Of a stretch of DNA of 64,000 nt, positions 14,337 to 54,728 are shown piece by piece. Both the position numbers and the translations under genes were made by a program. Every line of letters begins with the position of its first letter. Positions within the stretch are counted from its first letter, which is position 1. Source of the stretch: Eledone cirrhosa (taxonomy: Eukaryota); the NCBI GenBank assembly GCA_964016885.1, contig OZ024747.1, positions 35,960,001-36,024,000 of the forward strand. Direction: 5' to 3'. The notes beneath the pieces are model-generated. The model saw nothing but the letters and a program-made list of their open reading frames with translations, did no database searches and was not told the origin of the DNA.

Positions 14337-14353
14337 TTATTATTATTATTATT

Positions 14354-16168
14354 ACAGTTGGATTTATCTTGCTTTATGTTCATACGAGTTATCACCAAAT
14401 CACAACCAGTGACCTCAAGAGACAAGAAGCTCCGGCATGCTCAAGACAGAACATACATACACACACATGCATCTTTAGTTGTTTAGACCTGTGATGTATT
14501 TATATTAACAGAATCTTCCTTTGTATATGGGCAGTTCCCATTAGTACTATCATTTGTATATCTGCTATACGCAGGTTTCCTGGGATTTGCGATAAGTAAT
14601 CAATAGACCACCTATGTATCATTACTAGAGTTCCTACAACCACTGGTATTGTTTTAGTTCTCAATTACCACATTTTTCCAATTTCTATCTCCAGGTCCTT
14701 ATACTTGCTCAATTTTTCAAATTCTTCTCTATTGGAACGGACATATCAATTAGTAGGCATACCTTCTTTTTAAAGTCCTTCAGTATTATATCAGGTCTAT
14801 TTGCATCTATTTTTCGGTCTGTGTGTATGCTAAAGTTCCACAAGAATGAGATGTGATCTTCGTCAAGTATGGGAGGTGGTTGATGCTCCCACCAATTCTT
14901 TTGATGGGGCAGGTCAAAATGCTTACACATTATCCAATGTATGTATTGTGCAGCTCTGTCATGCCTGTTTAGGTATTCGGTTGGAGCTATAGGACTACAC
15001 ATTGAAATTATATGATCAATGGTCTCTGGTTGTTTTTTACATACACGGCATAATGGGTTGCATCCATTTTTTATTATGTTGGCTTGGTAATTTTTTTGTT
15101 GGCAGACACTGATCTTGTGCCGATATAACCAGTCCTTCAGTCTCCGATTTCAGTTCAGAGGGTGCCAACCACTGATGGGTTAAAGTTTTGTCAACATCAG
15201 GATTGTTAGCTCTTTCTGGGTATTTTCCATACAGTGACTGTCCTTGCCATTTCTTAGCCAGTTTCTGTAGCAGTTCTTTCTTTGCAGTTACTTTTACCTG
15301 CTTTGTTTTTTCTGTGTTTTCGATTTCAGCAGTAAATGGGACTTCTGAAATGTGAAGTCCATTACCTCATCTTTGTGCATCTTTTGTAATGTAGTATGAT
15401 CTTTTGATGCTTTCGTGGTTCAAAACGAGTTTCATCATTCAATCATGTGATTTCCTTAGATATGTAGATAATCCAATTGTTGCAGTTTTCAACGCAATAT
15501 CTAACTGGATTAACTCACGTCCTCCTTCTTTCCTAGGGAGATATATTCTATCTATATCTGCCTTAGGGTGATGCATTCTGTGCATGGTTAAGAATTTTCA
15601 AATTTTTGTATCGAGCCTACGGATCTCTGTGCTTGACCAGTTGATGACATTGTAACTGTAGGTTACTACTGGTATGGCAAGCGGGTTTATGGCATCGATG
15701 GTATTCCTTGCATTCAATTCCGTTCTTAAGATTGCTCTTACTCCGCGGTAACATTCCTTCCTTATCCTTTCCCTCATTGTCGAGTTCTTGATTCCGTACC
15801 CTTCACAAACACCTAGATAATTGTAAGTTTCCTCTTGATCAAATTCTCTTATCACATTCCCCCGATCAAGATTAGTGTCTGAACTTTTCAACAGCTTTCC
15901 TTTGTGAACGTTGCTTTGGCGCATTTATCTTGTCCAAACTCTATTTTAATATCATCACTGAACTGCTCCACAGTGGATAATAACCCTTGCAATTGTTCAA
16001 CATATTTTGCAAATAGTTTAAGGTCATCCATGCAGACCAAGTGATTAATGGTTTTGTCATAGACCTTTTATGCATGTTTTGTTTCATTGAGCATTTTACT
16101 TATGGTATACGTGCGATGCAGAATAAAAGCGGTGATAAAGAGTCACCCTGAAAAATTCCACGATTAAT
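14354..16168 (-). mobile_element. R4/Dong-type element family B, copy B1 (5'-truncated, degenerate)
   Basis: Homologous to 29235-31060; RHD and RPDIILKD RLE motifs; (ATT)n on both sides. Confidence 0.92.
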
Positions 16169-16180
16169 ATTATTATTATT

Positions 16181-16897
16181 ACAGTTGCATTTATATTGCT
16201 TTATGTTCATACGAGTTATCACCAAGTCACGACCAGTGACCTAAAGAGACAACAAGGTCCGCCATGTTCAAGAAAGAACATACATACTCACACATGCATC
16301 TTTAGTGTTTAGACTTGTGATGTACTTATATTGACAGAATCTTCCTTAGTATATGGGCAGTTCCCATTAGTAATATCCTTTGTATTTCTCCTATACGCGA
16401 GTTTCCTGGGATTTGCGATAAGTAATCATTAGACCCCTTAGTTATCATTCCCAGAGCGCCTACAACCACTGGTATTGTTTTAGTTCTCAATTTCTACATT
16501 TTTCCAATTTATATCTCCAATTTTTCAAATGTTTTTATAGATACATTCTTGTCTATTGGAACCGACATATCAATTAGCAGGCATACCCTCTTTTTAAAGT
16601 CCTTCAATATTATATCATGTCTATTTGCATCTTTTTTTCGGTCGGTTTGGATGCTAAAGTTCCACAAGATTGAGATGTGATCTTTTTTGAGTATGGGAGG
16701 TGGTTGATGATCCCACCAATTCTTTTGATGGAGCAGGTCAAACTGCTTACACATTATCCAATGTATGTATTGTGCAGCTCTGTCATGCCTGTTTAGGTAT
16801 TCTGTCGGAGCTATAGGACTGCACATTGAAATTATATGGTCAATGGTCTCTGGTTGTTTTTTGAATACACGGCATAATGGGCTGCATCCATTTTTTA
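16181..16897 (-). mobile_element. R4/Dong-type family B, copy B2 (short 3' fragment)
   Basis: Homologous to 29235-29967; (ATT)n on both sides. Confidence 0.92.
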
Positions 16898-16920
16898 TTA
16901 TTATTATTATTATTATTATT

Positions 16921-19375
16921 GTTGTTATTCCTTGAATCTCAGTCATTGATGTTGGTTAACTGGAAAGTCCGTTGGATTGAATATCAAGCCACTACCTGCA
17001 GCCTCAGATATTCAGGACGTATCGGAGGGTTCTTGCTGTTCCAAGCAAGCATGCCTTTTGAAGCGTTCCAAAAAGCGTGAAGGGGCCGATTTTCTTTAAC
17101 CATCCCTGGAAACTTTTGGAGATAGTCCCCAGTGCGCCTATGACAATCGGGATCACTTTGACTTCATGGCAGTTCCAAATCCTTTTCACCTCCCACTTTA
17201 GGTCCTGGTATCGGTTAATTTTCTCCCTCTCCTTCTCTTGCACTCTCGTATCGAACGGGCAGGCCACATCCACAATCAGACACGATCTTTTTTCTTTGTC
17301 CACAACCACCAGGTCAGGTCTATTGTGTTCCAGTTTTTTGTCCGTCTGTATCGTAAAATCCCACATCACCTTCACCTGATTGTTCTCCATCACCGCCTCT
17401 GGCCTATGCTCATACCATTTCTCAGAATGTGGTAAATTGTTTACTTTGCACAGGTGCCAGTGGATCACCCTGCCCATCACATCGTGTCTCCAGCCCTTAT
17501 AGTGGGTCTGGGCTAGGTGTTTACACTCGGACACAATGTGAGCCACAGTCTCCTCTCTCTCTCCACAGATCCTGCACAGTGGGCTAGCCTCCTCCTTGTA
17601 GATATGGTGCTTCAACCACTTCGTTTTGAGGGCCTGCTCCTGCGCAGCCATTAGCATTCCTTCTGTAGCCTTTTTGAAGTCTCCTCTTCTCAACCAGTTC
17701 CATGTCTGTGGATCTCTAAATTCAGTTTTCTCAAAGAAGGTACTATGAAGGGATTTTCCCTTAAGGCTGCTCTTCCACCTTGATGTTATTTCCTCCTTGG
17801 ACATCCCCTGGCCTACTGTCCCCTCCTTCAGTACAGTTCTGAGCATTGGCTCCTTACTATAGGTCACGTATTTGTATAGGTTGTTTTTCTCCATCTGAAC
17901 ACAGTCCTCTATGCTGATAAGACCTCTTCCACCCTCAGATCTCCTTAGGTAGAGTCTATCGACATCACTCCTCTTGTGGAACATGTTGTAGATAGTCAAT
18001 AGCTTCCTAGTCTTCCTATCCGTTTCTTTTTGTTCAGCAACATTCCATCTCAGAATTCCCGCACTGTACCTAACAATAGACACAGCTCGGTAATTTACTG
18101 CGCTTATGGCATTTCTGCTGTTCAGATGTGACTTCAATACGCTCCTTACTCTCCGAATGTATTCAGTTCTTAACAATTCCTTCATTTTTTTGTTCTTTAT
18201 GCCATCAGCCTCCAGAACGCCCAAATACTTGTACCCTTCCTCAGAGTCAATTTCCTTTATCATCTCACCTGTTGGTATCTGGATCCCGTTATTTCTGCTC
18301 AACCTACCCTTCTTCATCACAATGACTCCACATTTACCAATACCAAACTGCATACATATATCACTGCTGAAAATACGGACAGTGTCAACAAGCACATCCA
18401 ACTCCTTCTCACTTTTCCCGAAGAGCTTAAGATCGTCCATGAAGAGGAGGTGATTGATGGTAAGCTCTCCCCTTCCCAACTTGTATCCTGCTCTCACTTT
18501 TCGCAGCATAATGGTCAAGGGCATCAAGGCAAGGACAAACAACAGAGGGGACAGGCTATCTCCCTGGAAGATACCTCTCTTGATCTTCACGCTTCCCAAG
18601 GATACTCCAGTTGATGTCAACTCTGTCTCCCAGGACCCCATACTCCTGCCTAGCAACTGTCTGATGTTATCTGCCACCCTGAAGATCTCCAGGCTTTTGG
18701 TGATCCAGGAATGAGGCACCATGTCAAATGCCTTTCTGTAGTCTATCCATCCCATGGCAAGATCAGTGTGTCTCCTCCTGCAATTCCCCATTACCATCTT
18801 ATCAATAAGTAACTGGTCCTTTGTACCACGTGACTTCTTTCGGCATCCTTTCTGTTCGTCCGGTAACAAGTTGTTTGTGTGGAGGTGATGGTAGATTTCC
18901 TCAGACACAATGCTCGTCAACAGTTTCCACATTACGGACAGACATGTGATAGGTCTATAGTTGGTAACATCATTACCCTTGATTCGGTCTTTCATTATCA
19001 GAACTGTGGTACCTTTTGTCAACCACTCTGGCACCTCACCCGACACCAAGCAGTCATTGAACATGGCCGTCAGCTTCGGGTGGAGGGATGTTAAATGTTT
19101 AATCCAATACCCCTGCACACCATCTGGGCCTGGTGATTTCCAGTTGGTTAGTTTTTTGGCCTGCCCCTTAAGAGTTTCAACTGTGATACTCAAATCAGTT
19201 TGTTGTTGTGCCTGCTCACCGATCTCCCTCTGTACTGTCTCAATCCACCCTGCCTGGGCATTGTGTCTAACATCCTGCTCCCATATTCCTCTCCAGAATG
19301 TTTTAGTTTGCTCCGCCCCAGGGATCAAGTCGTTGCCTCTTTCTTTCCCCTCAAGCTGTCCAAACAGCATCTTCT

Positions 19376-19376
<1 letters not shown>
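16921..19376 (-). mobile_element. R4/Dong-type family A, copy A1 (5'-truncated; open frame 19370-17004, 788 aa RT+ZnF+RLE)
   Basis: Near-identical to 50574-53031. Motifs QGDSLSP, LFMDD, CRICGEREETVAHIVSEC, RHD and RPDLVVVD...DVACP...KINRY. Confidence 0.95.
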
Positions 19377-19407
<31 letters not shown>

Positions 19408-19692
19408 GGCGACCTACGTAGGAAATCGTATTATCGTGAGCTCCGCAAAGGTTTGTTATTTCCGTTTGTTTAAAAATTGCCATTTATGGAAAATTTTATT
19501 GTAAACTGTTTATAAGCACACATACATTGTTTTCCGAAAAGGACACCCAAAAACATTGGGGCCTTGTGCCCAAAATTTTAACTTTTATTATCCAAAAATT
19601 TCTTTGAAAAAAAATGGCTAATTCCCCTCTGCACGAAGCAGCTGAAAGCCTTCCTCACAAAATAACACCTCACACCGACACCACCATTGTAA

Positions 19693-21577
19693 ATGTTACT
19701 ACGTTTGCCAACACAAAAAAAAAAAAAATATATAAGCAGTAGCAATATTTTAAATTTGTCTCAGGCAGACATTCATTTCCCGCCATTACCAATGACTGCA
19801 GGTGTTAAACCCTCCACCACCACCACCACCGCGACAACCACCACCACCACCACCACCGCGACACCAGAAACAAAAGAAGAAAAAAATAAATTAACTCGTG
19901 ACGTCCAAATGAAATCAAGCAAAATGGACTCTTCCCCACCAAAGACGACTGACGTCACCAACACCACAACTGAAAATAAAATTAATATTAACGATAGCAA
20001 CAACAACAACAATGACATTATAAAACCGACCCTCAGTTTCGCCATCGTAGCAAAACAATTCGAAGCGTTCACGGTAACTCAAGAAGATTTAGAAAATGCC
20101 AAACAAATGGTAAAGAAAGATGGGTACAGGGTCAGCCTCACCCCCCCCCCCCCCCACCTAATAAAATGGAGCATCGGCGCCTGTGCACCGTGTCGTATAG
20201 AACAATAAATGTAAAATCGCGCCGAGTGGAACGGGCATCCGAGTCCCAAATCCAAAAAGCTTTGGGACATGTGTGGGCAAGAAAAACCCACATCAAACGT
20301 GGGCAAAAGTATGGAACCGTGGATGTGTTCTTTGAAACACCAGAGGAGGCTAGAGAACACACCATGGCCCCATTAAAAAGTGACGACCTCACACTCGTCC
20401 CAAGCTATTGTGGCCAGAGACTCGTAAAGATCAAGGTGACCCACGTTCCACCGGCCATCGAAATTCCCTGGCTAATAGCGGCTGTCCTCGCCGGCATCGA
20501 AGCCAACACGAAAATAATAGCAGTAGCAAAAGAAAAGCAGGAAAACTGGTCCGGATCTGGGATGGAGCTCCTGATCCAAGCGGACCAAAAAAGCATTGAG
20601 GAGATCCCAGAGGTAATAGACCTCACTGACGGCAGCCACCTCACGGTAATTGTCGAGGGCAGAAGACCTAGGTGTGTCGTTTGTGGTGAAGGAACCCACC
20701 TAAGGGCTTTCTGCCCTCAGGCTAAAAGGTTGAGGCCACCTCTCCTACCCACCCCAGTGACACAACCATCAACACCACCAGTAGCAGAGATGGCAGCAAC
20801 AACTGTAGCAGCAACAACAGAAGCAACTATAACAGCAACAACCCCAGCAACAGTAGCAAAACCAACACCACTACCACCCAACGCTTCAGAACTAGCACCA
20901 GCGCCTACACCATCCACCACACCGCAACCAAAACTAACGGCTGTGGAGGATTTTCCACTCCCCGGCCTATCACAACTGGAGACAGATTGTGACGACGAGG
21001 AGTGGGAAACGATATCCGGAAAAAAAAAAGAAACCAAAAAAGAAAAAATTCTCTTCCTTCCCCCTCCAAAAACAAAATACGGAGGGAAACAAATAAACTA
21101 AGAAACAAAAAAGTTAGGACAGATATGCCACCATCCACACCAGCATCACCAACCCAAACACCAACACCATCACCATCATTATCCCCAGCACCACCATCAC
21201 CTACACCACAAAAGTCACCAAAATGCGAAACAGAAACAAACCCACAACAAACGCAAACAAAACAAAACAACCAAAACGATACACACTACACAGCATTAAA
21301 ATTGAACTACAAGCAATTATTACACTACATCCAACACAACACCAGCGTCACAGAAAAAGACTACACAACAACCCCAAAATTCACACCACCTCCACACATA
21401 CAAATCACTCGCATCACACAGAAAACGTACATGACACTAAAACAAAAATTCCCCAAAGACATCGGAGACTTCCGACAAGCACTCTCCAGGAGGATTTATA
21501 AGGACATCCTTCCTGAGGAGGCCACAAGCAGTGAAAAGGATGGAAAAGCCGTCCTTCCCCTACGAGAAGTAAGGTAA
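19693..21577 (+). pseudogene. T1 ORF1 (RRM-like region + CX2CX4HX4C zinc knuckle, low complexity), split by two homopolymer frameshifts
   Basis: ORFs 19693-20208, 20166-21101 and 21002-21577; CVVCGEGTHLRAFC; colinear with intact ORF1 34360-36456. True start is uncertain. Confidence 0.85.
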
Positions 21578-24500
21578 GTGGTCTTTCCCATCTTTTCCAC
21601 TCCTTTTCAACATGACCTCACTCAGAGTAGGCAGCATAAATGCGCGTGGCTTGGGGTCGTCATGGAAGCAGGGCCACCTGCTCAACGACCTCAGGTCACT
21701 AAACATAGATGTAGTGGCCATCAGCGAGACCAGAATCTCCGAAGCACAGGCTTTCGCACCGATCTTCGGTGGCTACGATGTGTACGCATCTCCCAGCCGT
21801 CCGGGATCGGGGGGAGGAGTTGCTGTGCTTTTTCGGAGAGGTTTGGATCTTGCCATACGGGCCATCTTCCTGGACCCAGAAGGTAAGTTGGTGGTGCTGG
21901 ACGTGACCAGCGGAGACGGGCAAGCTTTCAGGTTAGTGGCCGTCTATGCCCCGACAGGAGCAGGGCGGCCTGATTTCTTCCGGCGTCTGGAGACCTTTCT
22001 TGGAACGTCCCGCTCTTTAGTGTTAGTGGGCGACTGGAACGGGATCTTAGATGCACGCTGGGATTGTGTGGGATTAGTGGATAGGGAAGGATGGTGCAAG
22101 AGTCTCACCAACCTGCTCAGACGTTTTGAACTGTCTTACAGGTACCGAATGGATTTCCCGAATGTACCAATGTGGACTTGGACAAATCGCATAGGGTCAT
22201 CCAGATCATATCTAGATAGAGTATTTTGTAGGGAAATAGATAGGTCTAGCATAGGCTGTCCACAATTCAAGATAGTCAGCTACACGGACCACAAATTCGT
22301 GATCTGTGTGCTTGACTTAGATAGGCTTCATAGACGAGGACCCGGCTACTGGAAGTTAAACGCGTCCTTACCAGCGCGCAAGGCCTACAGAGACCGGATT
22401 AGCGAACTAGTTAAGCGGGCGTTGACGGGGGCCATCGTCAACAACAAGTGGTGGTTTGCTCTGAAAAGAGCAATTAGAATAGAGTCCATTAGGTTTAGTA
22501 AGACTTTAGCAATAGAGAAAAATAGAGCAGTGGGAGAATTAGTTAGAAAATTAGATGAGGCGCTTAGCAAAGGCATCGCGACCAACGTACTTGCGGCGAA
22601 ATTGGCCCTTGACCAATTCTTCAATGCAAAGCACGAAGGCTGCGTTGTCAGAGCTAGGGTGCGTGCTCTCAGACACGAGGGGACGAAAGCCGTTCAATGG
22701 GCCCGAGTGGCGGAGGCGCGTCGTGGCAACAAAGCGACGATCCGGTCTTTGGTGGACCACGACGGGCGCATGCTACTCGATCCCGGTCAAATGTGTGAAG
22801 CTTTTCAGCGACACTTCGCTCAACTGTTCGGGGGCAGTGGCGGGCCGGATGGAGGGATGGACTTTAGTGTCTACCTCGACGGACTGCCGCGGCTTTCGGC
22901 CACTGAGGCGGAGTGTTGCGAAAAGCCGATAACAACCACTGAAGTACGGGATGCAATGACTAGTTGCACAAGGGGTAAATCGCCTGGTTTGGATGGTCTG
23001 CCCTATGAACTTTACGTACAAAAGCCAAACTTGTTCGGAGGCCTCTTGGCGGACGTCTACTGCAACTGGCAACAGAACGGGAGAATTGCCAGCTCTGTGA
23101 GCCGAGGAGCGGTGGCGCTGCTGAGAAAGGATCCGAACAAGGGGGATAACATAGATAATTTTAGGCCCATAACTCTGCTAAACACAGAGTTCAAGATTTT
23201 GGCCAAGGTGCTAGCAAAGAGGTTGGCGCTTGTCGTAGGTGGTCTGGTGGGAGAGGCACAGACATGCGCCATTCCCGACAGATCCACCCACGACAACCTC
23301 CACCTCATGCGATACATCGTGGAGAGGGTAGCTAGGGAACCTGGCACGGGTGGGTCTTTGATCAATTTAGATCAGTCGAAAGCCTTCGATAGGGTCGACA
23401 ATCGTTACCTAACGGCAGTCCTGAGGGCGGCTGGCTTTGGGCCCGTCTTCAGAGGCTGGATCGCTGCCATGCACAGCGACATCTGCTCTGTAGTGAGAGT
23501 GAACGGTCACCTTTCGGAACCGTTCAACATCATGCGCTCGGTCCGCCAAGGATGTCCCCTCTCGTCCCTATTGTACGTATTGACTCTCGAGCCATTACTG
23601 CACAGACTGGAGACGTTGAGGGGGGTCCCGCGCGAACTAGGATGCGGAAGATCCGTGTCAGCATATGCGGACGATGTCACCGTAGTGGTGTCGAACGCCA
23701 AACACATCGAGGCGATCGGCACTACACTAAGAGAATACGAAGCGGTGACAGGAGCAATGATCAACCAGGAAAAGTCAGTGGGCCCGCAGCTCGGCACCTG
23801 GAGAGGCAGGTCTATGCCGTCCAACAGCGTCGTCGGGCGCTGGACGGACGGACCGGTTAAATTGCTAGGGGTCTGGTTCGGTCCAGACCTCCAGACGGAC
23901 AAAAACTGGGACGAGGTGACGAGCAGGGTGGCTTCTCTCACCTAGAAATGGGCGGAGAGGAAGCTATCCTTGAAAGGTCGAGCGGAGGTGGCGAATGCGT
24001 ACATCGCATCCGTCATCTACTACCGCCTGACCGTCGTACCTTGTCCTAAGCCCCGCCTGACTGCGCTGGAGCGTTAGCTCTTTCGCTTCTTGTGGAAGGA
24101 ACGCGCTCCAATGGTCAGGCGGTCCATCTGCTGTCAACACCCGCTACGTGGAGGGCTGGGCATGCCGTGGCTGATGATGCGCAGACACGCGCTCAGGCTA
24201 CGACATCTCCACCTCTTCCTCGACGGTGATCAGGTGTGGTCGCCGTTTGCAAGACACGTTTTTCCCCAGCTCGTCTCTTTGACGGAGCTGCAGTCCTGGG
24301 TCAAGCGAAGACCGAGAGGGAGCGCTTGGAGACTGGAATGTCTTCAGGCGCTCACAGCCCTCGGCAAATCGGGCAATGTGATCGGTGGAAACTCCACCTT
24401 GGCGTTCTATAGGGGATTAGTGGAGGGGAAGAGCGACGACGTACTTGGAGAAACTCTAGGCGTCGACGAAAATCAACTAGCCAATCTCTTCGGAAGGACT

Positions 24501-25192
24501 TTCGGGCCGGGGCCTATGGACAACTTCCAGAAATCCCTGGCCTGGCAGTGCTACCGAGGAGCTTTGCCAGTTCGGGATAAACTCTACAGGCATGGAGGTG
24601 CCGTCAGCCGGGCATGTCCGAGATGCGCGCAGGGCGACGAAACCGTCCTGCACGCACTCGTCCAGTGTCCGAGCATTGCTGACTTGTGGGTTTATGTCGA
24701 ACACCTGCTGTCACGTGTAGGACGGATCCAGCTATCAGCTGAGTCCATCGTGAGGATTGCCCCGCCCCCTTCCTTTAGCCCGGAAGGGCAGGCAGTTTTT
24801 AATCTGTCTGGTGGCCATGGCGAAAGAGATAGTATGGTGGACACGTTTGAAAGGGCTGAAGACGAGCACTTACCTCTTCGGTGATGCCCTGATTAACTTT
24901 TTAAAATTTCATTTGAAAAGGAAAATCAGGGTAGAGAGGGAAGTGCTCTCTTCCCAGCATTTTGTTGAAAGATGGGTGAGAGAAGCAAGTATGGCCCGAA
25001 TGAATGGGCCTTCTCTGAGTATGTGTCTGTAAATTAAAGGTGGAAAACTGGGAGAGGGCACTTGCCCTGGTGGTCAGGGCCACTGTGGTCTTTTAATGGG
25101 CTTTCTCCACAAATGTCCCTTGGAAGTCTCCCCCCTATTGGGGAATTTTTCTTTGTTATTTTATTTCAACCTCTGTTTTTTTTTACACGCAG
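21574..25192 (+). other. Predicted GT-AG intron spanning all of T1 ORF2
   Basis: Donor AAG|GTAAGT at 21574 overlaps the ORF1 stop. Acceptor CTCTGTTTTTTTTTACACGCAG| ends at 25192. AATAAA at 25266. Prediction only. Confidence 0.55.
21612..25032 (+). pseudogene. T1 ORF2 (APE endonuclease + RT + C-terminal Cys/His motif), disrupted
   Basis: SINARGL, AISET, VYAP, GDWN, YLDRVF, TDHK, KSPGLDG, FRPITLLN, QGCPLS, AYADD, CPRC...ETVLHALVQC. Stops at 23943 and about 24075, frameshift at about 24800. Confidence 0.93.
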
Positions 25193-25343: not shown

Positions 25344-25345
<2 letters not shown>

Positions 25346-29170: not shown

Positions 29171-29234
<64 letters not shown>

Positions 29235-42200: not shown

Positions 42201-44661
42201 ATTGGTAGTGGCATTGCAACTGACGTGCTAGCTGCGAGAAGTGGCGGGTCAGAGATGGTGGCGGACTTCAGTCCCTACCTCGATGGCTTGCCGCAACTCT
42301 CGACGGCTGACACTGGGCGCTGCGAAAGGCCAATTACTTCAGCCGAGATTCACGATGCCCTTGCAGGCTGCATGAGGCGCAAGTCACCCGATTTAGATGG
42401 TCTGCCCTACGAGCTTTACGTAAATATGCCAGGTTTGTACTCCAAACTTCTCGAATCCCTCTACTGCAACTGGCACAAAACGGGAATATTCCCAGTTCTG
42501 TGAGCGTAGTGACGCTGATAAGGAAAGACGAGAACAAGAGGACACATTAGACAATTTCAGGCCCATAACTCTGCTCAACACAGAGTTTAAGATTGTTGCC
42601 AGGGTGTTAGCGAAGAGTTTGGAGCTTGTCGTCGAGCATTTGGTCGGGGAGGCGCAAACTTGCGCAATCCCAACAAGGTCCATACACGACAACCTCCACC
42701 TAATGCGATACATCATAAAGAGGGTAGGGTGTAAACCTGGCTTCGGTGGGGCTCTGATCAATTTAGATCAATCGAAAGCATTCGATAGGGTCAACCATCG
42801 GTACCTGGAGGCTGTCCTCAAGGCGGCTGGCTTCGGCCCCGTCTTCAGAAGCTGGATCGCTGCAATGCACAGCGGCACCTGCTCTATGGTCAAAATTAAT
42901 GGCCACCTCTCGGAACCGTTTCAGGTCTCCCGATTGGTCCGTCAAGGGTGCCCTCTCTCCTCCCTTCTGTACGTATTGACTCTCGAGCCTTTACTGCGGA
43001 AGCTGGAGCTGCTGCAGGGCATCCCGCTCGAACCGGGACGCGGAAAGGCTGTGTCAGCTTATGCGGACGACATCACCGTGATGGTGTCGGACACCTCAGA
43101 AATCGAGGTGGTCGGCAACTTATTGGAGGAATAAGAAAGGTTGACGGGAGCAAAACTTAACCCGGAATAGTCAGTAGGCTTGCAACTCGGTACCTGGAGA
43201 CGCAAGTCCATGCCGTCCAACAGGGTCGTTAAGCGCTGGACGGACGGACTGGTAAAGTTGCTAGGGATTTGGTTCGGGCCAGACCTCCAGCTGGATAAGA
43301 ATTGGGACGAGATGACGGGAAGGGTATTCAGTCTCACCCAGAAATGGGCTGGGATGAAGCTATAACAGAAAGGTCGGGCGAAGGTGGCGAACGCGTCCGT
43401 CATCTACTACCGTCTGACTGTCGTCCCTTGCCCCCGTTCGCGCCTTGCCATCTTCGAGCGGCTCCTCTTCAAATTATTGTGGAGGGGTCACGTTCCGCTG
43501 GTGAGGCGGTCCATCTGCTGCCAGCACCCTCTACGTGGAAGGCTGGGCATGCCGTGGCTAATGATGCGCAGGAACGCGCTGAGGCTGCGGCATCTCCAGA
43601 TATTCTGCCTAAACGGTGAACAGGTGTGGTCGCCGTTTGTCAGACGGGCCTTTCCGCAGCTCGTTTCTTCGACTGAGTTGCAGCCTGGGTCAAAAAGAGA
43701 CCGAAACTGGGTGACTGGCATCTGGAATGTTGCCAGGCACTCACTGCCCTCTGCCAGGCGGGCAATATGGTCAGTGGAACTTCCACTCTCGAGTTCTATA
43801 GAGGATTAGTGGTGGGCAAGTGCGACAACGCACTCGGAGAGGCTCTGGGAGTCAACGAAGTCGAACTAACCAGTCTGTACCGGAGGACTTTCGAGCCGGG
43901 AACGATGGATAATTTCCAAAAATCCCTCGCTTGGCAGTGCTACCGGGGGGTACTGCCGGTTCGAGATAAACTCTACAGGCACGGAAGTGCTGTCAGACGA
44001 ACTTGCCCGACATGCTCGCAGAGCGACGAAACGGTTCTGCACGCACTCGTTCAGTGTCCGTGCACTACTGACTTGTGGAGTTATGTTGAACAGCTGTTGT
44101 CGCGTGTAGAACGGATCCGGCTATCGGCCGAGTCCATAGTGAAGATCGACCCGCCGCCTTCTTGTGGCCAGGAAGGGCAGACAATTTTCCTCTGACTGGT
44201 GGCAGTAGCGAAAGAGGTTGTATGGTGGACGAGGTTGAAAGGACTGAAGACAGACACTTTTCTCTTCGGCCAATCCCTCATCAACTTTTTCAAGTTTCAC
44301 TTGGAAAGGAAGGTGAGGGTGGAGAGAGAAGTGCTGCCCTCCAGTACATTTGCTGAAAGGTGGGTGAATGTGGCGAGAATGGCCCGTGTGAGTGGGCCTA
44401 CTCTGGGTAGGTAAATTTGTATAGGATAGGGTGCTCTTCCAGGGTGCTCTCGAAGCGTCGGGTCGTTCAGGACTGGTGGGGTACCTGAGCGAACCCTATT
44501 GGCGAATTTTTTCTTGTTGTAATGCTCTTGTTACTTTATTGTTGCTTTGTTATTGTTAATATGTCTATTCATATTGTTTACTCGATTTTTCTGTAAAACC
44601 CCACTGTCCAAGTCTTTTGTATTGTCCACTATATGTCGGCCCTTGTGGCCAATAAATGAAA

Positions 44662-44663
<2 letters not shown>
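39252..44663 (+). mobile_element. Tx1/L1-type LINE copy T3 (divergent family, ORF1 type 3), degenerate
   Basis: CFVCGEKTHLRAFC; ORF2 from ATG 41249 to about 44414 with APE/RT motifs, many stops and an internal deletion near 42240. Ends AATAAATGAAATC before (ATT)n. Confidence 0.92.
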
Positions 44664-44717: not shown

Positions 44718-47700
44718 GGCGACCTACGTAGTAAATCGTATCTTCGTGAGCTCCGCAAAGGTTTGTTATTTTCAATTGTTCAAAATTGCCATTCATGGAA
44801 AACGTTATTGCTAACTGTATATAAGTGCACATACATTGTTATCTGAAAAGGACACCCAAAAAGATTGGCGCCTTGATCCCAAAATTTAAACTTTTGTAAT
44901 TATCAAACAAAAATATTTCTTTGAAACATCATGGCTGACTCAGAGTCACTCCTTTCTCACAAACTAACACCTCACACCGACACCACCATTGTAAATATTA
45001 ATACGTTTGCCAACACAAAAGAAATTTAAGCAGTAGCAATATTTTAAATTTGTCTCAGGCAGACATTCATTTCCCGCCATTACCAATGACTGCAGGTGTT
45101 AAAGCCGCCACCACCACCACCCCCGCGACAACCCCCTCCCCCCAACCACCAGCACGACAACCCCCTCCCCCCAACCACCACCACCGCGACAACAGAAACA
45201 AAATAAAAAAAAATAAATTAACTCGTGATATCGAAATGAATTCAACCAAAATTAACTCTTCCACACTGAACACCACTGACGCCACCACCACCACAACTGA
45301 AACTAAAATTAATAACGATAACAACAACAGCAACAATGACATTAAGAAAACCAGCCTGAGTTTTGCAAGAGTAGCAAAACAGTGCGAAGCATTTCACGTA
45401 ACACATGAGGAATTAGAAGAAGCGAAAAAAATGGTAAAGAAAGATGGGAACAGGGTCAGCCTCCCCCCCCCCCCCCACTTAATAAAATGGAGCATCGGCG
45501 CCTATGCACCGTGTTTTATCGAACAATTAATATAAAATCGCGCCGAGTGGAACGGGCATCCAAGTCCCAAATCCAAAAGCTTTGGGACATGTGTGGGCAA
45601 ATAAAAACAAACATCAGACGTGGGCAGAAGTATGGAACCGTGGAGGTGTTCTTTGAAACACCACAGGAGGCTAGAGAACACTCCATGGCCCCATTAAGAA
45701 GTGACGACTTCACACTCGTCCCAAACTATTGTGGCCAGAGACTGGTAAACATCAGGGCCACCCACGTTCCACCGGCCATCGAAATTCCCTGGCTAATAGC
45801 TGCCGTCCTCGCCGGCATCGAAGCCAACACCAAGATAATCGAAATAGCGAAAGAAAAGCAGGAGAACTGCTCCGGATCTGGGATGGAGCTCCTGATCCAA
45901 GCGGACCAAAAAAGCATTGAGGAGATCCCAGAGGTAATAGACCTCACTGACGGCAGCCACCTCACCGTAATTGTCGAGGGTAGAAGACCTAGGTGTGTCG
46001 TTTGTGGTGAAGGAACCCACCTAAGGGCTTTCTGCCCTCAGGCTAAAAGGTTGTGGCCACCTCTCCTACCCACCCCAGTGACTCAACCATCAACACCACC
46101 AGCAGCAGAGATAGCAGCAACAAATGTAGCAGCAACAACAAAAGCAACTGTAACAGCAACAACCCCAGCAACAGTAGCAAAACCAACACCACCACCACCC
46201 AACGCGCCAGAACTAGCACCAGCCCATACATCATCCACCACGCCACAAACAAAACTAACGCCTATGGAGGATTTTCCAATCCCCGGCCTATCACAACTGG
46301 AGACAGATTGTGACGACGAGGAGTGGGAAACGGTATCAGGAAAAAAAGAAAAAAAGAAACCAAAAAAGAAAAAAATTCTCTTCCTTCCCACTCCAAAAAC
46401 AAAATACAGAGGGAAACACATAAACTATCAAACAAAAAAGTTAGGACAGATATGCCACCATTCACACCAGCATCACCAACCCCATCACCCCAAACACCAA
46501 AACCATCAGCATCATTAACCCCAACACCACCATCACCTACACCACAGAAGTCACCAAAAAGCGAAACAGAAACAAACCCACAACAAACACAAACAAAACA
46601 AAACAACCAAAACGATACACACTACACAGCATTAAATTTGAACAACAACCAATTATTACACTACATCTAACACAACACCAGCATCACAGAAACAGACTAC
46701 ACAACAACCCAAAAGTTCACACCTTCTCCACACATACAAATCACTCGCATCACACAGAAAACGTACATGACACTAAAACAAACATTCCCCAAAGACATCG
46801 GAGACTTCCGACAAGCACTCTCTAGGAGGATTTATAAGGAAATCCTTCCGGAGGAGGCCACAGGCAGTGAAAAGGATGAAGAAACCATCCTTCCTCTACG
46901 AGAAGTAAGGTAAGTGGTCTTTCCCATCTTTTCCACTCCATTTCAACATGACCTCACTCAGAATAAGCAGCATAAATGCGCGTGGCTTGGGGTCGTCATG
47001 GAAGCAGGGCCACCTGCTCAACGACCCCAGGTCACTAAAGATAGATGTAGTGGCCATCAGCGAGATCAGAATCTCCGAAGGACGGGCCTTAGCACCGATC
47101 TTCGGCGCCTACAATGTGCACGCTTTTCCCAGCTGTCCTGGATCGGCTGTGCTTTTTAGGAGAGGTTTGGATCTCGCCATACGTACCATCTTCTTGGACC
47201 CATAAGGTAAGTTGGTGGTGCTGGACATCCAGCGGTGACGGGCAAGCTTTCACGCTAGTGGCCGTGTATGCCCCGACAGGAGCAGCAGGGGGGGCCTGTA
47301 TTTCTTCCGGCGTCTGGAGACCTTTCTTGGAACGTCCCGCTCTTTAGTGTTAGTGAGCGACTGGAACGGGATCTTAGATGCCCGCTGGGACTGTGTGGGA
47401 TTAGCGGAGAGGGGAGGAGGGTGCAAGAGCCTCACCAACCTGCTCAGGCGTTTTGAACTGTCTGACAGGTATCGATTAGATTTCCCGAATGTGCCAATGT
47501 GGACTTGGACAAATCGCATAGAGTAATAGATAGGTCTAGCATAGGCTGTACACAATTCGTCATCTGTGTGCTTGACTTAGATAGGCTTCATAGACGCGGA
47601 CCCGTCTACTGGAAGCTAAACGCATCCTTACCAGTGCGCAAGGCCGACAGGGACCGGATTAGCGAACTAGTTAAGCGGGTCTTGACGGGGGACATCGTCA

Positions 47701-50537
47701 ACAACAAGTGGTGGTTTGCTCTGAAAAGAGCGATTAGAATAGAGTCCATTAGATTTAGTAAGGCTTTAGCAATAGAGAACAATAGAGCAGAGGGAGAATT
47801 AGTTAGAAAATTAGACGAGGCGCTTTGCAAAGGCATCGCGACCAATGTACTTGCGGCGAAATTGGCCCTTGACCAATTCTTCAATGCAAAGCACGAAGGC
47901 TGCGTTGTCAGAGTGAGGTTGAGTGCTCTCAGACACGAGGGGACGAAAGCCGTTCAATGGGGCCGAGTGGCGGAGGCGCGTCGTGGAAACAAAGCCACGA
48001 TCCGGTCTTTGGTGGACCACGACGGGCGAATGCTACTCGATCCCGGGCAAATGTGTGAAGCTTTCCAGCGACACTTCGCCCAGATGTTCGGCGGCAGCGG
48101 CGGGCCGGATCGAGGGATGGACTTTAATGTCTACCTCGACGGACTGCCGCGGCTCTCAGCCACTGAGGCGGAGTGTTGCGAAAATTAATAACAGCCGCTG
48201 AAGTACAGGAGACAATGACTGGCTGCACAAGGGGTAAGTCCCCTGGTTTGGATGGTCTGCTCTATGAACTTTACGTACATATTCCAGACGTGTTCGGAGG
48301 CCTCTTGGAGGACGTCTACTGCAACTGGCAACAGAACGGGAGAATTCCCAGCTCTGTGAGCCGAGGAACTGTGGCGCTGCTGAGAAAGGATCCAAACAAG
48401 GGGGATGACATAGATAAGTTTAGACCCATAACTCTGCTAAACACAGAGTTCAAGATTTTGGCCAAGTTGCTAGCAAAGAGGTTGGCGCATGTCGTTGGTG
48501 GTCTGGTGGGAGAGGCGCAGACGTGCGCCATTCCGGACAGATCCATCCACGACATCCTCTACCTCATGCGATACATCGTAGAGAGGGTAATTAGGGAACC
48601 TGGCACGGGTGGGTCCTTGATCAATTTAGATCAGTCGAAAGCTTTCGATAGGGTCGACCATCGTTACCTAGCGGCAGTCCTGAGGGCGGCTGGCTTTGGG
48701 CCCGTCTTCAGAGGCTGGATCGCTGTCATGCACAGCGACATCTGTTCTGTGGTGAGAGTGAACGGTCACCTTTCGGAACCGTTCAACATCATGCGCTCGG
48801 TCCACCAAGGATGTCCCCTCTCGTCCCTTTTGTACGTATTGACTCTCGAGCACTAACTGCACAAACTGGAGACGTTGAGGGGGTCCCTGGCGAACTACGA
48901 TGCGGAAGATCCGTGTCAGCATATGCGGACGATGTCACCGTAGTGGTGTCGAACGCCAATCACACCGAGGCGATCGGCACTACACTAAGAGAATACGAAG
49001 CGGTGACAGGAACAATGAGCAACCAGGAAAAGTCATTGGGCCTGCAGCTCGGCACCTGGGGAGTCAGGTCCATGCCGTCCAACAGCGTCGTCGGGCGCTG
49101 GACGGACGTACCGGTTAAATTGCAAGGGGTCTGGTTCGGTCCGGACCACCAGACGGACAAAAACTGGGGCGAGGTGACGTGCAGGGTGGCTTCTCTCACC
49201 TAGAAATGGGCGGAGTGGAAGCTATCCCTGAAAGGTCGAGCGAAGGTGGCTACCGCGTACATTGCGTCCGTCATCTACTACCGCCTGACCGTCGTACCTT
49301 GTCTTAAGCCCCGCCTAACTGCGCTGGAGCGTTTGCTCTTTCGCTTTTTGTGGAAGGGACGCGCTCCGATGGTCAGGCGGTCCATCTGCTGCCAACACCC
49401 GCTACGTGGAGGGCTGGGCTTGCCGTGGCTGATGATGCGCAGACACGCGCTCAGGCTATGGCATCTCCACCTCTTCCTCGATGGTGATCAGGTGTGGTCG
49501 CTGTTTGCTAGACGCGTCTTTCCCAGCTCGTCTCCTTGACGGAGCTGCAGTCCTGAGTCAAGCAAAGACCGAGAGGGAGCGCTTGGAGATTGGAATATCT
49601 TCAGGCGCTCACAGCCCTCGACCAATCGGGCAATGTGATCGGTGGAAACTCCACCTTGACGTTCTATAGAGGATTAGTGGAGGGGAAGGGCGATGACGTA
49701 CTTGGAGAAACTCTAGCCGTCGACGAAAATCAACTAGCCAAACTCTTCGGAAGAACTTTCGGGCCGGGTCCTATGGATACATTCCAGAAATTCCCGGGCT
49801 GGAAGTGCTACGGAGGAGCTTTGCCAGTTCGGGATAAACTTTACAGGCATGGAGGTGCCGTCAGCCGGGCATGTCCGAGATTCGCGCAGGGCGACGAAAC
49901 CGTCCTGCCCACACTCGTCCAGTGTCTGAGCATTGCTGACTTGTGGGTTTATGTCGAACACCTGCTGTCGCGTGTAGGACGGATCCAGCTATCAGCTGAG
50001 TCCATCATGAGGATTGCCCCGCCCTCTTCCTTTAGCCGGGAAGGGCAGGCAGTTTTTATCTGTCTGGTGGCCATGGCGAAAGGGATAGTATGGTGGACAC
50101 GTTTGAAAGGGCTGAAGACGTGCACTTCCCTCTTCGGTGATGCCCTGATTAACTTTTTCAAATTCATTTAAAAAAGGAAAATCAGGGTAGAAAGGGAAGT
50201 GCTCTCTTCCCAACATTCTGTTGAAAGATGGGTGAGAGAGGCAATAATAACCCGAGTGAATGGGTCTACTCTGAGTATGTGTCTGTAAATTAAAGGTGGA
50301 AAACTGGGAGAGGGCACATGCCCTGTTGACAGGGTCACTGCGGCTTTTTAATGGGCTTTCTCCACGAATATCCGTCGGAAGTCACCCCCCTATTGGGGAA
50401 TTTTTTCATTGTTCTATTTTTAAATCCTCTGTTTCTTATTTTTTACACGCAGAAATGCCCATTTTTACCGCCCTGCATTGTCCTGTACTGTCCTTAATGT
50501 CTACTTTATGTAAACCCTTGTGGTTAATTAAGAAAGC
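44718..50537 (+). mobile_element. Tx1/L1-type LINE copy T4, full length, degenerate (same family as T1)
   Basis: Same 5' end GGCGACCTACGTAG as T1 and colinear throughout, with several small deletions and stops. Confidence 0.93.
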
Positions 50538-50573: not shown

Positions 50574-53500
50574 GTTATTGTTATTCCTTGAATCTCAGTC
50601 ATTGATGTTGGTTAACTGGAAAGTCCGTTGGATTGAATATCAAGCCACTACCTGCAGCCTCAGATATTCAGGACGTATCGGAGGGTTCTTGCCGTTCCAA
50701 GCAAGCATGCCTTTTGAAGCGTTCCAAAAAGCGTGAAGGGGCCGATTTTCTTTAACCATCCCTGGAAACCTTTGGAGATAGTCCCCAGTGCGCCTATGAC
50801 AATCGGGATCACTTTGACTTCATGGCAGTTCCAAATCCTTTTCACCTCCCACTTTAGGTCCTGGTATCGGTTAATTTTCTCCCTCTCCTTCTCTTGCACT
50901 CTCGTGTCGAACGGGCAGGCCACATCCACAATCAGGCACGGTCTTTTTTCTTTGTCCACAACCACCAGGTCAGGTCTATTGTGTTCCAGTTTTTTGTCCG
51001 TCTGTATCCTAAAATCCCACAGCACCTTCACCTGACTGTTCTCCATCACCGCCTCTGGCCTATGCTCATACCATTTCTCAGAATGTGGTAGATTGTTTAC
51101 TTTGCACAGGTGCCAGTGGATCACCCTGCCCATCACATGGTGTCTCCAGCCCTTATAGTGGGTCTGGGCTAGGTGTTTACACTCGGACACAATGTGAGCC
51201 ACAGTCTCCTCTCTCTCTCCACAGATCCTGCACAGTGGGCTAGCCTCCTCCTTGTAGATATGGTGCTTCAACCACTTCGTTTTGAGGGCCTGCTCCTGCG
51301 CAGCCATTAGCATTCCTTCTGTAGCCTTTTTGAGGTCTCCTCTTCTCAACCAGTTCCATGTCTGTGGATCTCTAAATTCAGTTTTCTCAAAGAAGGTACT
51401 ATGAAGGGATTTTCCCTTAAGGATGCTCTTCCTCCTTGATGTTATTTCCTCCTTGGATATCCCCTGGCCTACTGTCCCCTCCTTCAGTACAGCTCTGAGC
51501 ATTGGCTCCTTACTATAGGTCACGTATTTGTATAGGTTGTTTTTCTCCATCTGAACACAGTCCTCTATGCTGATAAGACCTCTTCCACCGTCAGATCTCC
51601 TTAGGTAGAGTCTATCGACATCACTCCTCTTGTGGAACATGTTGTAGATAGTCAATAGCTTCCTAGTCTTTCTATCCATTTCTTTTTGTTCAGCAACATT
51701 CCATCTCAGAATTCCCGCACTGTACCTAATAATAGACACAGCTCGGGAATTTACTGCGCTTATGGCATTTCTGCTGTTCAGATGTGACTTCAATACGCTC
51801 CTTACTCTCCGAATGTATTCAGTTCTTAACAATTCCTTCATTTTTTTGTTCTTTATGCCATCAGCCTCCAGAACGCCCAAATACTTGTATCCTTCCTCAG
51901 AGTCAATTTCCTTTATCATCTCACCTGTTGGTATCTGGATCCCGTTACTTCTGCTCAACCTACCCCTCTTCATCACAATGACTCCACATTTACCAATACC
52001 AAACTGCATACATATATCACTGCTGAAAATACGGACAGTGTCAACAAGCACATCCAACTCCTTCTCACTTTTCCCGAAGAGCTTAAGATCGTCCATGAAG
52101 AGGAGGTGATTGATGGTAAGCTCTCCCCTTCCCAACTTGTATCCTGCTCTCACTTTTCGCAGCATAATGGTCAAGGGCATCAGGGCAAGGACAAACAACA
52201 GAGGGGACAGGCTATCTCCCTGGAAGATACCTCTCTTGATCTTCACGCTTCCCAAGGATACTCCAGTTGATGTCAACTCTGTCTCCCAGGACCCCATACT
52301 CCTGCCCAGCAACTGTCTGATGTTATCTGCCACCCTGAAGATCTCCAGGCTTTTGGTGATCCAGGAATGAGGCACCATGTCAAATGCCTTTCTGTAGTCT
52401 ATCCATCCCATGGCAAGATCAGTGTGTCTCCTCCTGCAATTCCCCATTACCATCTTATCAATAAGCAACTGGTCCTTTGTACCACGTGACTTCTTTCGGC
52501 ATCCTTTCTGTTCGTCCGGTAACAAGTTGTTTGTGTGGAGGTGATGGTAGATTTCCTCAGACACAATGCTCGTCAACAGTTTCCACATTACGGGCAGACA
52601 TGTGATAGGTCTATAGTTGGTAACATCATTACCCTTGATTCGGTCTTTCATTATCAGAACTGTAGTACCTTTTGTCAACCACTCTGGCACCTCACCCGAC
52701 ACCAAGCAGTCATTGAACATGGCCGTCAGCTTCGGGTGGAGGGATGTTAAATGTTTAATCCAATACCCCTGCACACCATCTGGGCCTGGTGATTTCCAGT
52801 TGGTTAGTTTTTTGGCTTGCCCCTTAAGAGTTTCAACTGTGATACTCAAATCAGTCTGTTGTTGTGCCTGCTCACCGATCTCCCTCTGTACTGTCTCAAT
52901 CCACCCTGCCTGGGCATTGTGTCTAACATCCTGCTCCCATATTCCTCTCCAGAATGTTTTAGCTTGTTCCGCCCCAGGGATCAAGTCGTTGCCTCTTTCT
53001 TTCCCCTCAAGCTGTCCAAACAGCATCTTCTGGTTGTTGTCGAACATGCGGTTCTGTTTATACTGACTGACTCTGTTCTCGTATCGCCTGATTTTGGCAC
53101 TCTTTGCTACAATGCGATGCTTCAATTCCTCTATGATAATATTTAGCTTTTTACTCCTAGTTTTGTATTTTATTTCCAGTCTATTTTTAGTGCCTATGTT
53201 TTTTAGTGTCCCATTCAGTAGTGACTCAAGCTTTCCTATGTCATTTCTCATTTCCCCGATTTGCCCACTCAGTCGCTTCTTCCACCACGGCTCTGCTCTT
53301 TCTTGTCTGTTGTTTCCTCTCGCTTTTATACCAAGTAGTTTCCTCACCGTATTTGCTGTTGCTTTGAGGATATTGTTGCACTGGTGAAGACTCCTCGCCT
53401 CAAGGTATGGGATGACTTTGTTTACCTTAGCTGTTGTTTCTTTTAACTTTTTCCTGTCTACAAATCTTAGGTTCATAGGTCTCCCACTATCATTGTTCAA

Positions 53501-54284
53501 CTCATCTACCACTAAATTTAGGATATCAACCGAATCTTGTCCTAGCCCGTCAGCATTCATCTCCTCAGTGGCCGTATCTCTGTTCCAGGTATTATTTATC
53601 TCAGTATTCAGATCATTGTCTGCTTCGGGTGGTTCCTCCGTTCTCAGGACCTCCTCACCTTCATTTCCCGCCGGCTCGCTTGTCTGGCATACTACACCCG
53701 CCATCTCCAAGCCATTCTCTCTGCTCAGTTCCTCCAGTTCCAGCTCGCTTATCCACCCATTAGTTCTTATTACCCGAGCCTGCCCGGCCAATTTTTGTTC
53801 ATCTAATTTAAATAAACCAATCTCGTTCCAGATGTTATGCATCCGTCTCCTGTAGCCCCTCTCCTTGGGGTTACTTTTCAGGTAGCATTGCATAACAGTT
53901 CTATTCAATTCTTTCGTCCAGTTGGTTCTGGCCCCTTTCCTTCTTCTTCTTCCTCCAACATCAGCAGTATTTGGTTGACAGTCAGGTTCCTGCTGCTGAG
54001 CCAGGGGGCACCTGTTGGGTGAGAGTCTGTCACATGACGTTCTAGTCTCCATTTCACCGTTATTCGAACTGTTTATGTTCGATATTTAAACACTCTTATC
54101 GAGGATTGGCGAATGTATGTTTACATAGCCATCTGTGGATCCGCCATCCCACTTGGCCCTTGTGTGGCATTATCACCACGCTGTATACGGACACACATAA
54201 ACAAACAAACACACGGGCAGAAAGGGCCCCAAAAATGAATAAGCATAAGTTTCATTGTAATGTAGTATTCGAATGTCTGAATTA
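50574..54284 (-). mobile_element. R4/Dong-type family A, copy A2, apparently full length
   Basis: About 230-bp 5' UTR, intact ORF, about 80-bp 3' UTR, (ATT)n-like tracts on both sides. Confidence 0.95.
50660..54052 (-). CDS. Family A polyprotein, intact 1130 aa (Myb-like, RT, CCHC, restriction-like endonuclease)
   Basis: NWTKELNRTVMQCY, EPWWKKRL, NYRPITCL, IDYRKAFD, LFMDD, CRICGEREETVAHIVSEC, RPDLVVVD. Confidence 0.95.
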   Translation of the reverse strand: METRTSCDRLSPNRCPLAQQQEPDCQPNTADVGGRRRRKGARTNWTKELNRTVMQCYLKSNPKERGYRRRMHNIWNEIGLFKLDEQKLAGQARVIRTNGWISELELEELSRENGLEMAGVVCQTSEPAGNEGEEVLRTEEPPEADNDLNTEINNTWNRDTATEEMNADGLGQDSVDILNLVVDELNNDSGRPMNLRFVDRKKLKETTAKVNKVIPYLEARSLHQCNNILKATANTVRKLLGIKARGNNRQERAEPWWKKRLSGQIGEMRNDIGKLESLLNGTLKNIGTKNRLEIKYKTRSKKLNIIIEELKHRIVAKSAKIRRYENRVSQYKQNRMFDNNQKMLFGQLEGKERGNDLIPGAEQAKTFWRGIWEQDVRHNAQAGWIETVQREIGEQAQQQTDLSITVETLKGQAKKLTNWKSPGPDGVQGYWIKHLTSLHPKLTAMFNDCLVSGEVPEWLTKGTTVLIMKDRIKGNDVTNYRPITCLPVMWKLLTSIVSEEIYHHLHTNNLLPDEQKGCRKKSRGTKDQLLIDKMVMGNCRRRHTDLAMGWIDYRKAFDMVPHSWITKSLEIFRVADNIRQLLGRSMGSWETELTSTGVSLGSVKIKRGIFQGDSLSPLLFVLALMPLTIMLRKVRAGYKLGRGELTINHLLFMDDLKLFGKSEKELDVLVDTVRIFSSDICMQFGIGKCGVIVMKRGRLSRSNGIQIPTGEMIKEIDSEEGYKYLGVLEADGIKNKKMKELLRTEYIRRVRSVLKSHLNSRNAISAVNSRAVSIIRYSAGILRWNVAEQKEMDRKTRKLLTIYNMFHKRSDVDRLYLRRSDGGRGLISIEDCVQMEKNNLYKYVTYSKEPMLRAVLKEGTVGQGISKEEITSRRKSILKGKSLHSTFFEKTEFRDPQTWNWLRRGDLKKATEGMLMAAQEQALKTKWLKHHIYKEEASPLCRICGEREETVAHIVSECKHLAQTHYKGWRHHVMGRVIHWHLCKVNNLPHSEKWYEHRPEAVMENSQVKVLWDFRIQTDKKLEHNRPDLVVVDKEKRPCLIVDVACPFDTRVQEKEREKINRYQDLKWEVKRIWNCHEVKVIPIVIGALGTISKGFQGWLKKIGPFTLFGTLQKACLLGTARTLRYVLNI

Positions 54285-54307
54285 CTATTATTATTATTAT
54301 TATTATT

Positions 54308-54664
54308 GTTATTCCTTGAATCTCAGTCATTGATGTTGGTTAACTGGAAAGTCCGTTGGATTGAATATCAAGCCACTACCTGCAGCCTCAGATATTCAGG
54401 ACGTATCGGAGGGTTCTTGCCGTTCCAAGCAAGCATGCCTTTTGAAGCGTTCCAAAAAGCGTGAAGGGGCCGATTTTCTTTAACCATCCCTGGAAACCTT
54501 TGGAGATAGTCCCCAGTGCGCCTATGACAATCGGGATCACTTTGACTTCATGGCAGTTCCAAATCCTTTTCACCTCCCACTTTAGGTCCTGGTATCGGTT
54601 AATTTTCTCCCTCTCCTTCTCTTGCACTCTCGTGTCGAACGGGCAGGCCACATCCACAATCAGG

Positions 54665-54666
<2 letters not shown>
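54308..54666 (-). mobile_element. R4/Dong-type family A, copy A3 (360-bp 3' fragment)
   Basis: Appears identical to 50580-50938; (ATT)n on both sides. Confidence 0.95.

Positions 54667-54728
<62 letters not shown>

Follow-up and report, generated by a model that had tools for sequence, protein, structure and literature searches.

How can two unrelated lineages of retrotransposons that lack long terminal repeats (non-LTR retrotransposons) share one simple repeat as their target and be arranged on it in strictly opposite directions? This question is raised by a 64,000-nucleotide stretch of Eledone cirrhosa DNA (contig OZ024747.1, positions 35,960,001 to 36,024,000 of the forward strand; referred to as the window), which contains a long array of R4/Dong-type and Tx1-type elements joined by (ATT)n tracts. 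The answer proposed here, to which a probability of about 0.68 is assigned, is that both lineages use a single ATT/AAT duplex as the target for TPRT (target-primed reverse transcription), that they prime on opposite strands of this duplex, and that the regenerated tracts are reused by later insertions.

Results

Organization of the array

The region from 14339 to 54721 (40.4 kb) is cut by 12 (ATT)n tracts, all on the plus strand, into 11 non-LTR retrotransposon segments, which are designated B1, B2, A1, T1, B3, B4, T2, T3, T4, A2 and A3 from left to right (Table 1). The tracts start at 14339, 16169, 16897, 19378, 25281, 29173, 34130, 39204, 44664, 50538, 54287 and 54666, and the one at 50538 is an imperfect ATT repeat. 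When tracts of at least four units are counted, the array contains 12 ATT tracts and no AAT tract, and the 23.6 kb of flanks contains one ATT tract and two AAT tracts. These three flank tracts are short, and each is associated with a short interspersed nuclear element (SINE), none with a long interspersed nuclear element (LINE).

The seven R4/Dong-type segments (A1-A3 and B1-B4), which belong to a clade with a restriction-like endonuclease (RLE), lie on the minus strand, and the four Tx1-type segments (T1-T4), which belong to the apurinic/apyrimidinic endonuclease (APE) lineage, lie on the plus strand; reverse transcriptase (RT) is encoded on the minus strand in the former and on the plus strand in the latter. 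A preliminary description of this DNA placed seven RLE elements on the minus strand and four APE elements on the plus strand. These strands are correct for 7/7 and 4/4 elements, but the RLE region is kept in only 6/7 (it is deleted in B3) and the APE in only 3/4 (it is deleted in T2). B3 and B4 remain alignable as far as the tracts, as do T1 and T4; T2, T3 and A2 have unique 5' ends, which begin ~200-250 nt ahead of their open reading frame (ORF) starts, so that host DNA is not apparent between the elements. The tract listing and the comparison of segments thus bear out the element order, the (ATT)n at every junction and the lack of intervening host DNA given in that description. Its further statement that no element is inserted inside another holds for the array elements, but not for one nested relic, a SINE-like 3' fragment. 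This fragment is present in element sense in the 5' untranslated regions (UTRs) of B3 and B4 (28214-28268 and 33290-33315); it is inherited and was acquired in the source lineage.

TAA in the element's own sense flanks 7/7 A and B copies at both ends. All four T 5' junctions are in one register, ATT followed by G, and all four T 3' junctions read C or CACT followed by ATT. Between neighbours in the same direction, the tail of one element is the 5' flank of the next; the three junctions that cannot be the 3' tail of any element are those of A1 with T1, B4 with T2 and A3 with the host. The two sides of A2 carry an identical interrupted tract motif (50556-50585 and 54281-54313), which is a marked target duplication or else belongs to a duplication involving A3 and A2. 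The chance of strict polarity is 0.001 when the 11 copies are treated as independent, 0.06 when five families are counted and 0.5 when two clades are counted. Because this chance is only 0.5 over clades, evidence was sought outside the array.

Table 1. Elements, selected tracts and SINE-like copies in the window
Feature	Position	Strand	Description
(ATT)n tract	14339..14354	+	Array left edge
B1	14355..16168	-	R4/Dong-type, 5'-truncated, old; ~5% private change
B2	16182..16896	-	5'-truncated; 5' junction with 7-nt microhomology to repeat
A1	16930..19377	-	R4/Dong-type family A, 5'-truncated, young
(ATT)10	19378..19407	+	Head-to-head junction of A1 and T1; no element's 3' tail
T1	19408..25279	+	Tx1-type; ORF1 and ORF2 (APE, RT, zinc finger); frameshifted
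B3	25345..29172	-	Complete 5' end; ~1160 bp internal deletion removes zinc finger and RLE
B4	29236..34129	-	Full length; 1117-amino acid (aa) frame breaking at RLE motif
(ATT)5	34130..34144	+	Head-to-head junction of B4 and T2
T2	34145..39203	+	Tx1-type; 5' UTR and ORF1 unlike T1 (45-50% aa); 3' half 95% to T1; APE deleted
T3	39252..44663	+	Divergent Tx1-type family, ~76% to T1; APE present
T4	44718..50537	+	T1 family, old insertion; 4.7% private change, neutral ratio of nonsynonymous to synonymous changes (N/S)
A2	50586..54286	-	Full length; intact 1141-aa frame with RT, CCHC and PD..D RLE
A3	54314..54665	-	352-bp 3' fragment, identical to A2
(ATT)18	54666..54721	+	Array right edge, meets host (AT)n; on 5' side of A3
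SINE-like copy	13014..13099	+	19-bp target duplication starting ATTAT
SINE-like copy	57365..57425	-	Truncated; 18-bp duplication (1 mismatch) starting ATTAT
SINE-like copy	58939..59118	-	A/B-box-like head (by eye); 19-bp duplication; inside ATT tail of another copy
SINE-like copy	60161..60318	-	~9-bp duplication; ATTAT at start of upstream copy

Two clades of elements

A2 encodes a single ORF with a central RT, a C-terminal CCHC and an RPD..D endonuclease motif, and B4 has the same layout, with the motifs split by its frame break. A and B represent two deep lineages (35% aa identity); copies are 98.7-100% identical within A and 89-93% within B. Among solved proteins, both have their best relatives in R2 (E 7e-60). 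A quick RT tree of 41 rows, which includes no named Dong sequence and none of T4, L081 and L090, places A and B as two lineages in a clade shared with unnamed moth and beetle proteins, with a support of 96 in the Shimodaira-Hasegawa-like approximate likelihood ratio test (SH-aLRT).

In the T elements, ORF1 carries a zinc knuckle, and ORF2 carries APE, RT and CCHC (identified by Pfam in T1 and T3 and by tblastn in T4); the similarity of T1 to T4 is 90%. Among solved proteins, the best relative of the T elements is L1 ORF2p (E 4e-108). In the same tree, T1-T3 and an Argonauta protein form one group (SH-aLRT 100), which joins a coral protein at SH-aLRT 86 and 31% identity; the name "Transposon TX1" is an automatic annotation. 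The assignment to R4/Dong and Tx1 in the preliminary description is supported by the solved-structure relatives, and the tree is compatible with it. The T elements have no poly(A), and their sequence runs directly into ATT.

The APE of T2 is lost through an internal deletion of ~970 bp with 4-nt microhomology, and the deletion of B3, which removes its RLE, also has 4-nt microhomology at its ends. At 34145-36456, T2 has a 5' UTR and ORF1 unlike those of T1, attached to a T1-like 3' half, and this composition suggests a putative swap of ORF1 between families. The microhomology of the B2 5' junction is expected at 0.13% of positions. A GTAAG splice-donor-like motif lies within the first 45 nt (~35-45 nt in) of B3, B4, T2 and T3, occurs as a variant in T1 and T4, and recurs in an element of the G005 bin described below; a motif of this type is thus common to both clades. 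An HDV-like (hepatitis delta virus-like) ribozyme is detected at 0/3 A/B 5' ends and 0/7 full 5' ends with two home-made descriptors, which are uncalibrated on a known ribozyme. Rfam gives no match at gathering score in the window, and the matches by E-value are at chance level only. Horizontal transfer of family A, sequence words of which occur in runs labelled with many organisms, is not claimed: runs X4 and X6 show all three families together, and the depth of ~3 for the families in X4 fits carry-over.

Target polarity of Dong relatives

Dong relatives with flanks were taken from animal DNA inside bacterial bins. Among 26 such loci, TAA-type tracts number 24 and TTA-type tracts 0 in the element sense. 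Among 56 loci, some rows of which are overlapping and whose element ends were placed by tblastn, TAA is present at 15/52 5' ends and 22/43 3' ends, and TTA at 1/52 and 2/43 respectively. In G001 and G005, same-direction trains of Dong elements are linked by TAA. No Tx1-type neighbour is found beside these trains in 7 G001/G005 stretches, all picked for several Dong matches. The viral scan gives one Dong-type locus (L081, 2399-6400 of a 30.6-kb IMG/VR contig), which is flanked by 17 and ~97 TAA units; a literature search gave no name for this Dong element. Long animal DNA stretches with LINEs are also present inside many GTDB bins (L082-L106).

Dong has a TAA-repeat-specific target (PMC3812793, PMC3774820). 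The Dong target named in the preliminary description agrees with this and with the tract polarity of the relatives. The Dong half of the arrangement, with TAA at both ends and same-direction trains, is known and general.

Target of the Tx1-type elements

Relatives of T are detected neither in the metagenome scans with T1 as a query nor in the viral scans. A metagenome scan with a T alignment gives 80 distant loci of 22-38% identity, with (ATT)4 in one and (AAT)4 in two. In G005, elements of a sister lineage of T (~42% aa) follow one another head to tail in long arrays. Contigs C3-C19 of this bin (L137, L138, L139, L144), which are animal DNA in a bacterial bin, contain >50 near-full-length, mostly intact Tx1-type elements. 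Their arrays are purely head-to-tail, with a period of 6.4-6.8 kb and up to ~7 elements in a row, and 5'-truncated units directly follow the 3' end of the previous unit. The junctions contain no microsatellite and, in three stretches, no Rfam RNA at gathering score. These elements are possibly self-targeting.

When the 3' ends are folded as an alignment, the flank SINE and T have a common terminal stem-loop, with the loop CTTGT and compensated stem pairs, 16-17 nt before ATT. A hairpin with the same loop is also located directly ahead of ORF1 in the 5' UTR of T1 (~19570-19590), with variants in T2-T4. Target duplications of 19, 19, 18 and ~9 bp flank four copies of the SINE, and the upstream copy of the duplication starts with ATTAT in 4/4. 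The RNA polymerase III boxes of the SINE are seen by eye only. From the shared 3' end we infer that T may move the flank SINE, its candidate partner. If so, priming by T takes place on the A-rich strand, and approximately six repeat units are duplicated. The SINE would then provide independent, indirect support for the polarity of T and would account for the renewal of the target.

Junctions that are absent from the window are found in contigs of run X1, among the matches listed and with the strand not given. At one, a truncated B is joined to a truncated T via TATTATT; at another, a truncated B is joined back to ATT plus a B end. A third row, with TATTAT, among the same matches is ambiguous. 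A Tx1 element on ATT/AAT looks new.

Ages of the copies

Private differences amount to ~5% in B1, 4.7% in T4, 2.6% in B2, ~2% in T1 and T2, 1.5-1.7% in B3 and B4, 0.9% in A1, and 0 over 350 bp in A2 and A3. The private changes of T4 (65 nonsynonymous, 25 synonymous and 3 stops; omega ~1) have a neutral N/S ratio, indicating an origin after the insertion. In T1, T2 and B4 the private changes are mainly synonymous, indicating inheritance from source lineages. At the rate for O. bimaculoides of 0.0036 per million years (PMC13282606), which may not be the rate of the host, the age of T4 would be ~13 million years. Because younger copies sit between the old B1 and T4, internal junction tracts have been reused over a long time.

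In a branching model in which one tract is added per insertion, <1 locus of 11 elements is expected among an assumed 350,000 tracts, unless such elements number well over 120,000 in the genome, these inputs being rough assumptions. The model suggests that regeneration alone would be too weak to produce an array of this size, and that either a very high genome load or a favoured site would be needed. The locus was previously termed a self-amplifying sink. The reuse of regenerated tracts on which this term relies is consistent with the ages and the SINE duplications, but self-amplification by regeneration alone appears too weak in the model with these rough inputs.

Flanking DNA

The left flank (13770-14338) is a high-copy repeat in run X1, with internal units of ~145-155 bp, and is therefore unusable as a single-copy anchor. 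A 133-bp direct repeat (95.5%; 54722-54854 and 55240-55372) starts exactly at the right edge of the array. The flanks also contain a long palindromic element (65-847), a near-perfect tandem duplication of ~615-bp period (7343-8979) and a 37-bp minisatellite (60855-61032).

Discussion

Proposed mechanism

In target-primed reverse transcription, the orientation of an element fixes which strand primes. By this logic, the opposite orientations of the two clades indicate opposite priming strands. The Dong-type A and B would prime on the T-rich strand and would be flanked by TAA in their own sense, and the Tx1-type T would prime on the A-rich strand and would be flanked by ATT. We infer that each endonuclease prefers its own strand, and pairing of the RNA tail with the primer probably assists this choice. 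Staggered cuts would duplicate a target of ~18-19 bp, as is observed for the SINE with the T 3' end and presumed for T itself. A usable tract would remain on both sides after each insertion and could be lengthened by slippage, and later elements of either clade would enter the junction tracts, not the element bodies. The array would have grown over a long period at a site that was probably favoured by local bias, such as long tracts and tolerant chromatin.

Several observations weigh against this mechanism. The array by itself is weaker evidence than it appears, given the chance of 0.5 at the clade level. The T sample consists of four copies in one array, and two of their 5' tracts could be a neighbour's tail. 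The SINE-T partnership is based on ~30 nt. At 2/4 SINE sites ATTAT stands without any repeat, and the preference may therefore be loose. An ATT/AAT tract is absent from 4/4 G005 sister-lineage stretches read, indicating that the use of ATT is not ancestral to the wider Tx1 group. On the Dong side, 37/52 5' ends have no TAA tract in the interval searched, and locus L177 has two fragments touching a tract of the wrong polarity. Strong microhomology is lacking at 3/4 truncated 5' junctions, B2 being the fourth. Finally, no contig or read among the matches listed bridges an array junction; raw-read run X24 provides only 29 reads, and none of those listed does so.

The nicking of opposite strands by the two enzymes that the preliminary description proposes is putative: orientation by itself settles only which strand primes, and that strand could be chosen through pairing of the RNA tail with the primer. 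It is conceivable, as a tentative alternative, that the T endonuclease is loosely AT-specific and nicks either strand, and that orientation results from pairing of an (AUU)n RNA tail together with a tendency to form tandem arrays, in which case the tails and not the enzymes have converged. The two SINE sites without a repeat, the direct transition of T into ATT without poly(A), and the tandem arrays of the sister lineage without a microsatellite are all compatible with this alternative. The 3' end of B4 is short by 5 nt, as expected if it was primed by pairing, and annealing of RNA to the target raises the accuracy of SART1 (PMC7265360). However, loose nicking is difficult to reconcile with the single register of all T junctions, and the endonuclease is the main determinant in TRAS/SART (PMC7265360).

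It is improbable that some of the array formed other than by independent insertions, with local duplication, read-through transcripts or template jumping as the source. The candidate pair is A3-A2: A3 is identical to A2 over 352 bp, A1 differs from both at 3/350 positions, and the interrupted tract motif around A2 fits this origin and a marked target duplication equally. In contrast, the other copies are 1-25% apart, each with its own truncation or deletion points, and tandem duplication cannot yield mixed clades and polarities. Misassembly, in which smaller real arrays are chained via near-identical elements or tracts, would be helped by the 98.7-100% similarity of the A copies and by the lack of bridging reads noted above, but is very unlikely, because copies are mostly 5-10% apart, tracts are at most 64 bp, the window contains no N, an independent run has junctions of similar types, Dong trains are present in other hosts, and each junction type stays real even in a chimera.

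A speculative extension, which is on the unlikely side, is that an octopod Tx1 lineage became specific for the antisense of the Dong target and drives an abundant SINE, that the ~19-bp ATT-led duplications keep seeding the microsatellite niche of Dong, and that mixed trains would self-assemble into putative mutual-silencing, dual-strand small-RNA loci. If this is true, the fixed opposite polarity would make read-through of one clade antisense to the other where the clades meet.

Comparison with known systems

A literature search, made outside Repbase entries, subscription journals and supplements, gives no description of an ATT-specific Tx1 family or of mixed Dong/Tx1 arrays, and the accessible portions of PMC9115989, PMC4758252 and PMC3747384 name no such case; a prior description of an ATT-specific Tx1 is possible. 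Five recent Dong-R4 families with 1129 recent insertions and 13 recent L1-Tx1 families are reported for Octopus vulgaris, in which the Dong-R4 families are abundant (PMC13282606).

Like the A and B elements, Dong of the R4 clade has a single ORF with RT, CCHC and RLE, and TAA in the element sense at both ends (PMC3812793, PMC3774820, PMC13282606). In the present array, however, two deep lineages (A and B) share the site with a Tx1 lineage, and the HDV-like 5' ribozyme shown for Bombyx Dong has no match with the uncalibrated descriptors. TRAS and SART of Bombyx resemble the array in that several families form arrays within one repeat, (TTAGG)n, where they are inserted in opposite directions (PMC7265360, PMC10088271), but both are R1-clade APE elements at telomeres, whereas the repeat here is an interstitial trinucleotide and is occupied by a Tx1 APE clade together with an RLE clade. 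Parallel evolution brought Keno (Tx1, APE) and Utopia (RLE) onto one U2 snRNA gene target (PMC4640811), but with identical 3' flanks and hence one polarity in a gene, instead of opposite polarity in a microsatellite. Microsatellite specificity, for (TC)n, (TTC)n, (TTCC)n and (TTTC)n, is known from Kibi, Koshi and crocodilian Tx1 families; the accessible portion of the source names no ATT/AAT target for them (PMC4494074). SINEU is moved by the Tx1 family Tx1-Mar, with which it has a common target (PMC4494074), whereas the link in the present case consists of a common 3' stem-loop and the ATTAT target.

Each single principle thus has a precedent already, which caps the surprise; the preliminary description mentions neither TRAS/SART nor Keno/Utopia, although both are close. 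The new part is likely to be the presence of a Tx1-type element, with its likely small partner element, on the opposite strand of the repeat used by Dong. It yields a candidate new target for Tx1 and, for an octopus SINE, a candidate LINE partner, and offers a mechanism for hot spots of transposable elements and for the abundance of ATT in octopod genomes. The locus provides a natural side-by-side test of insertion polarity, in which strand choice by the endonuclease and pairing of the RNA with the primer are set against each other for two unrelated enzymes on one duplex.

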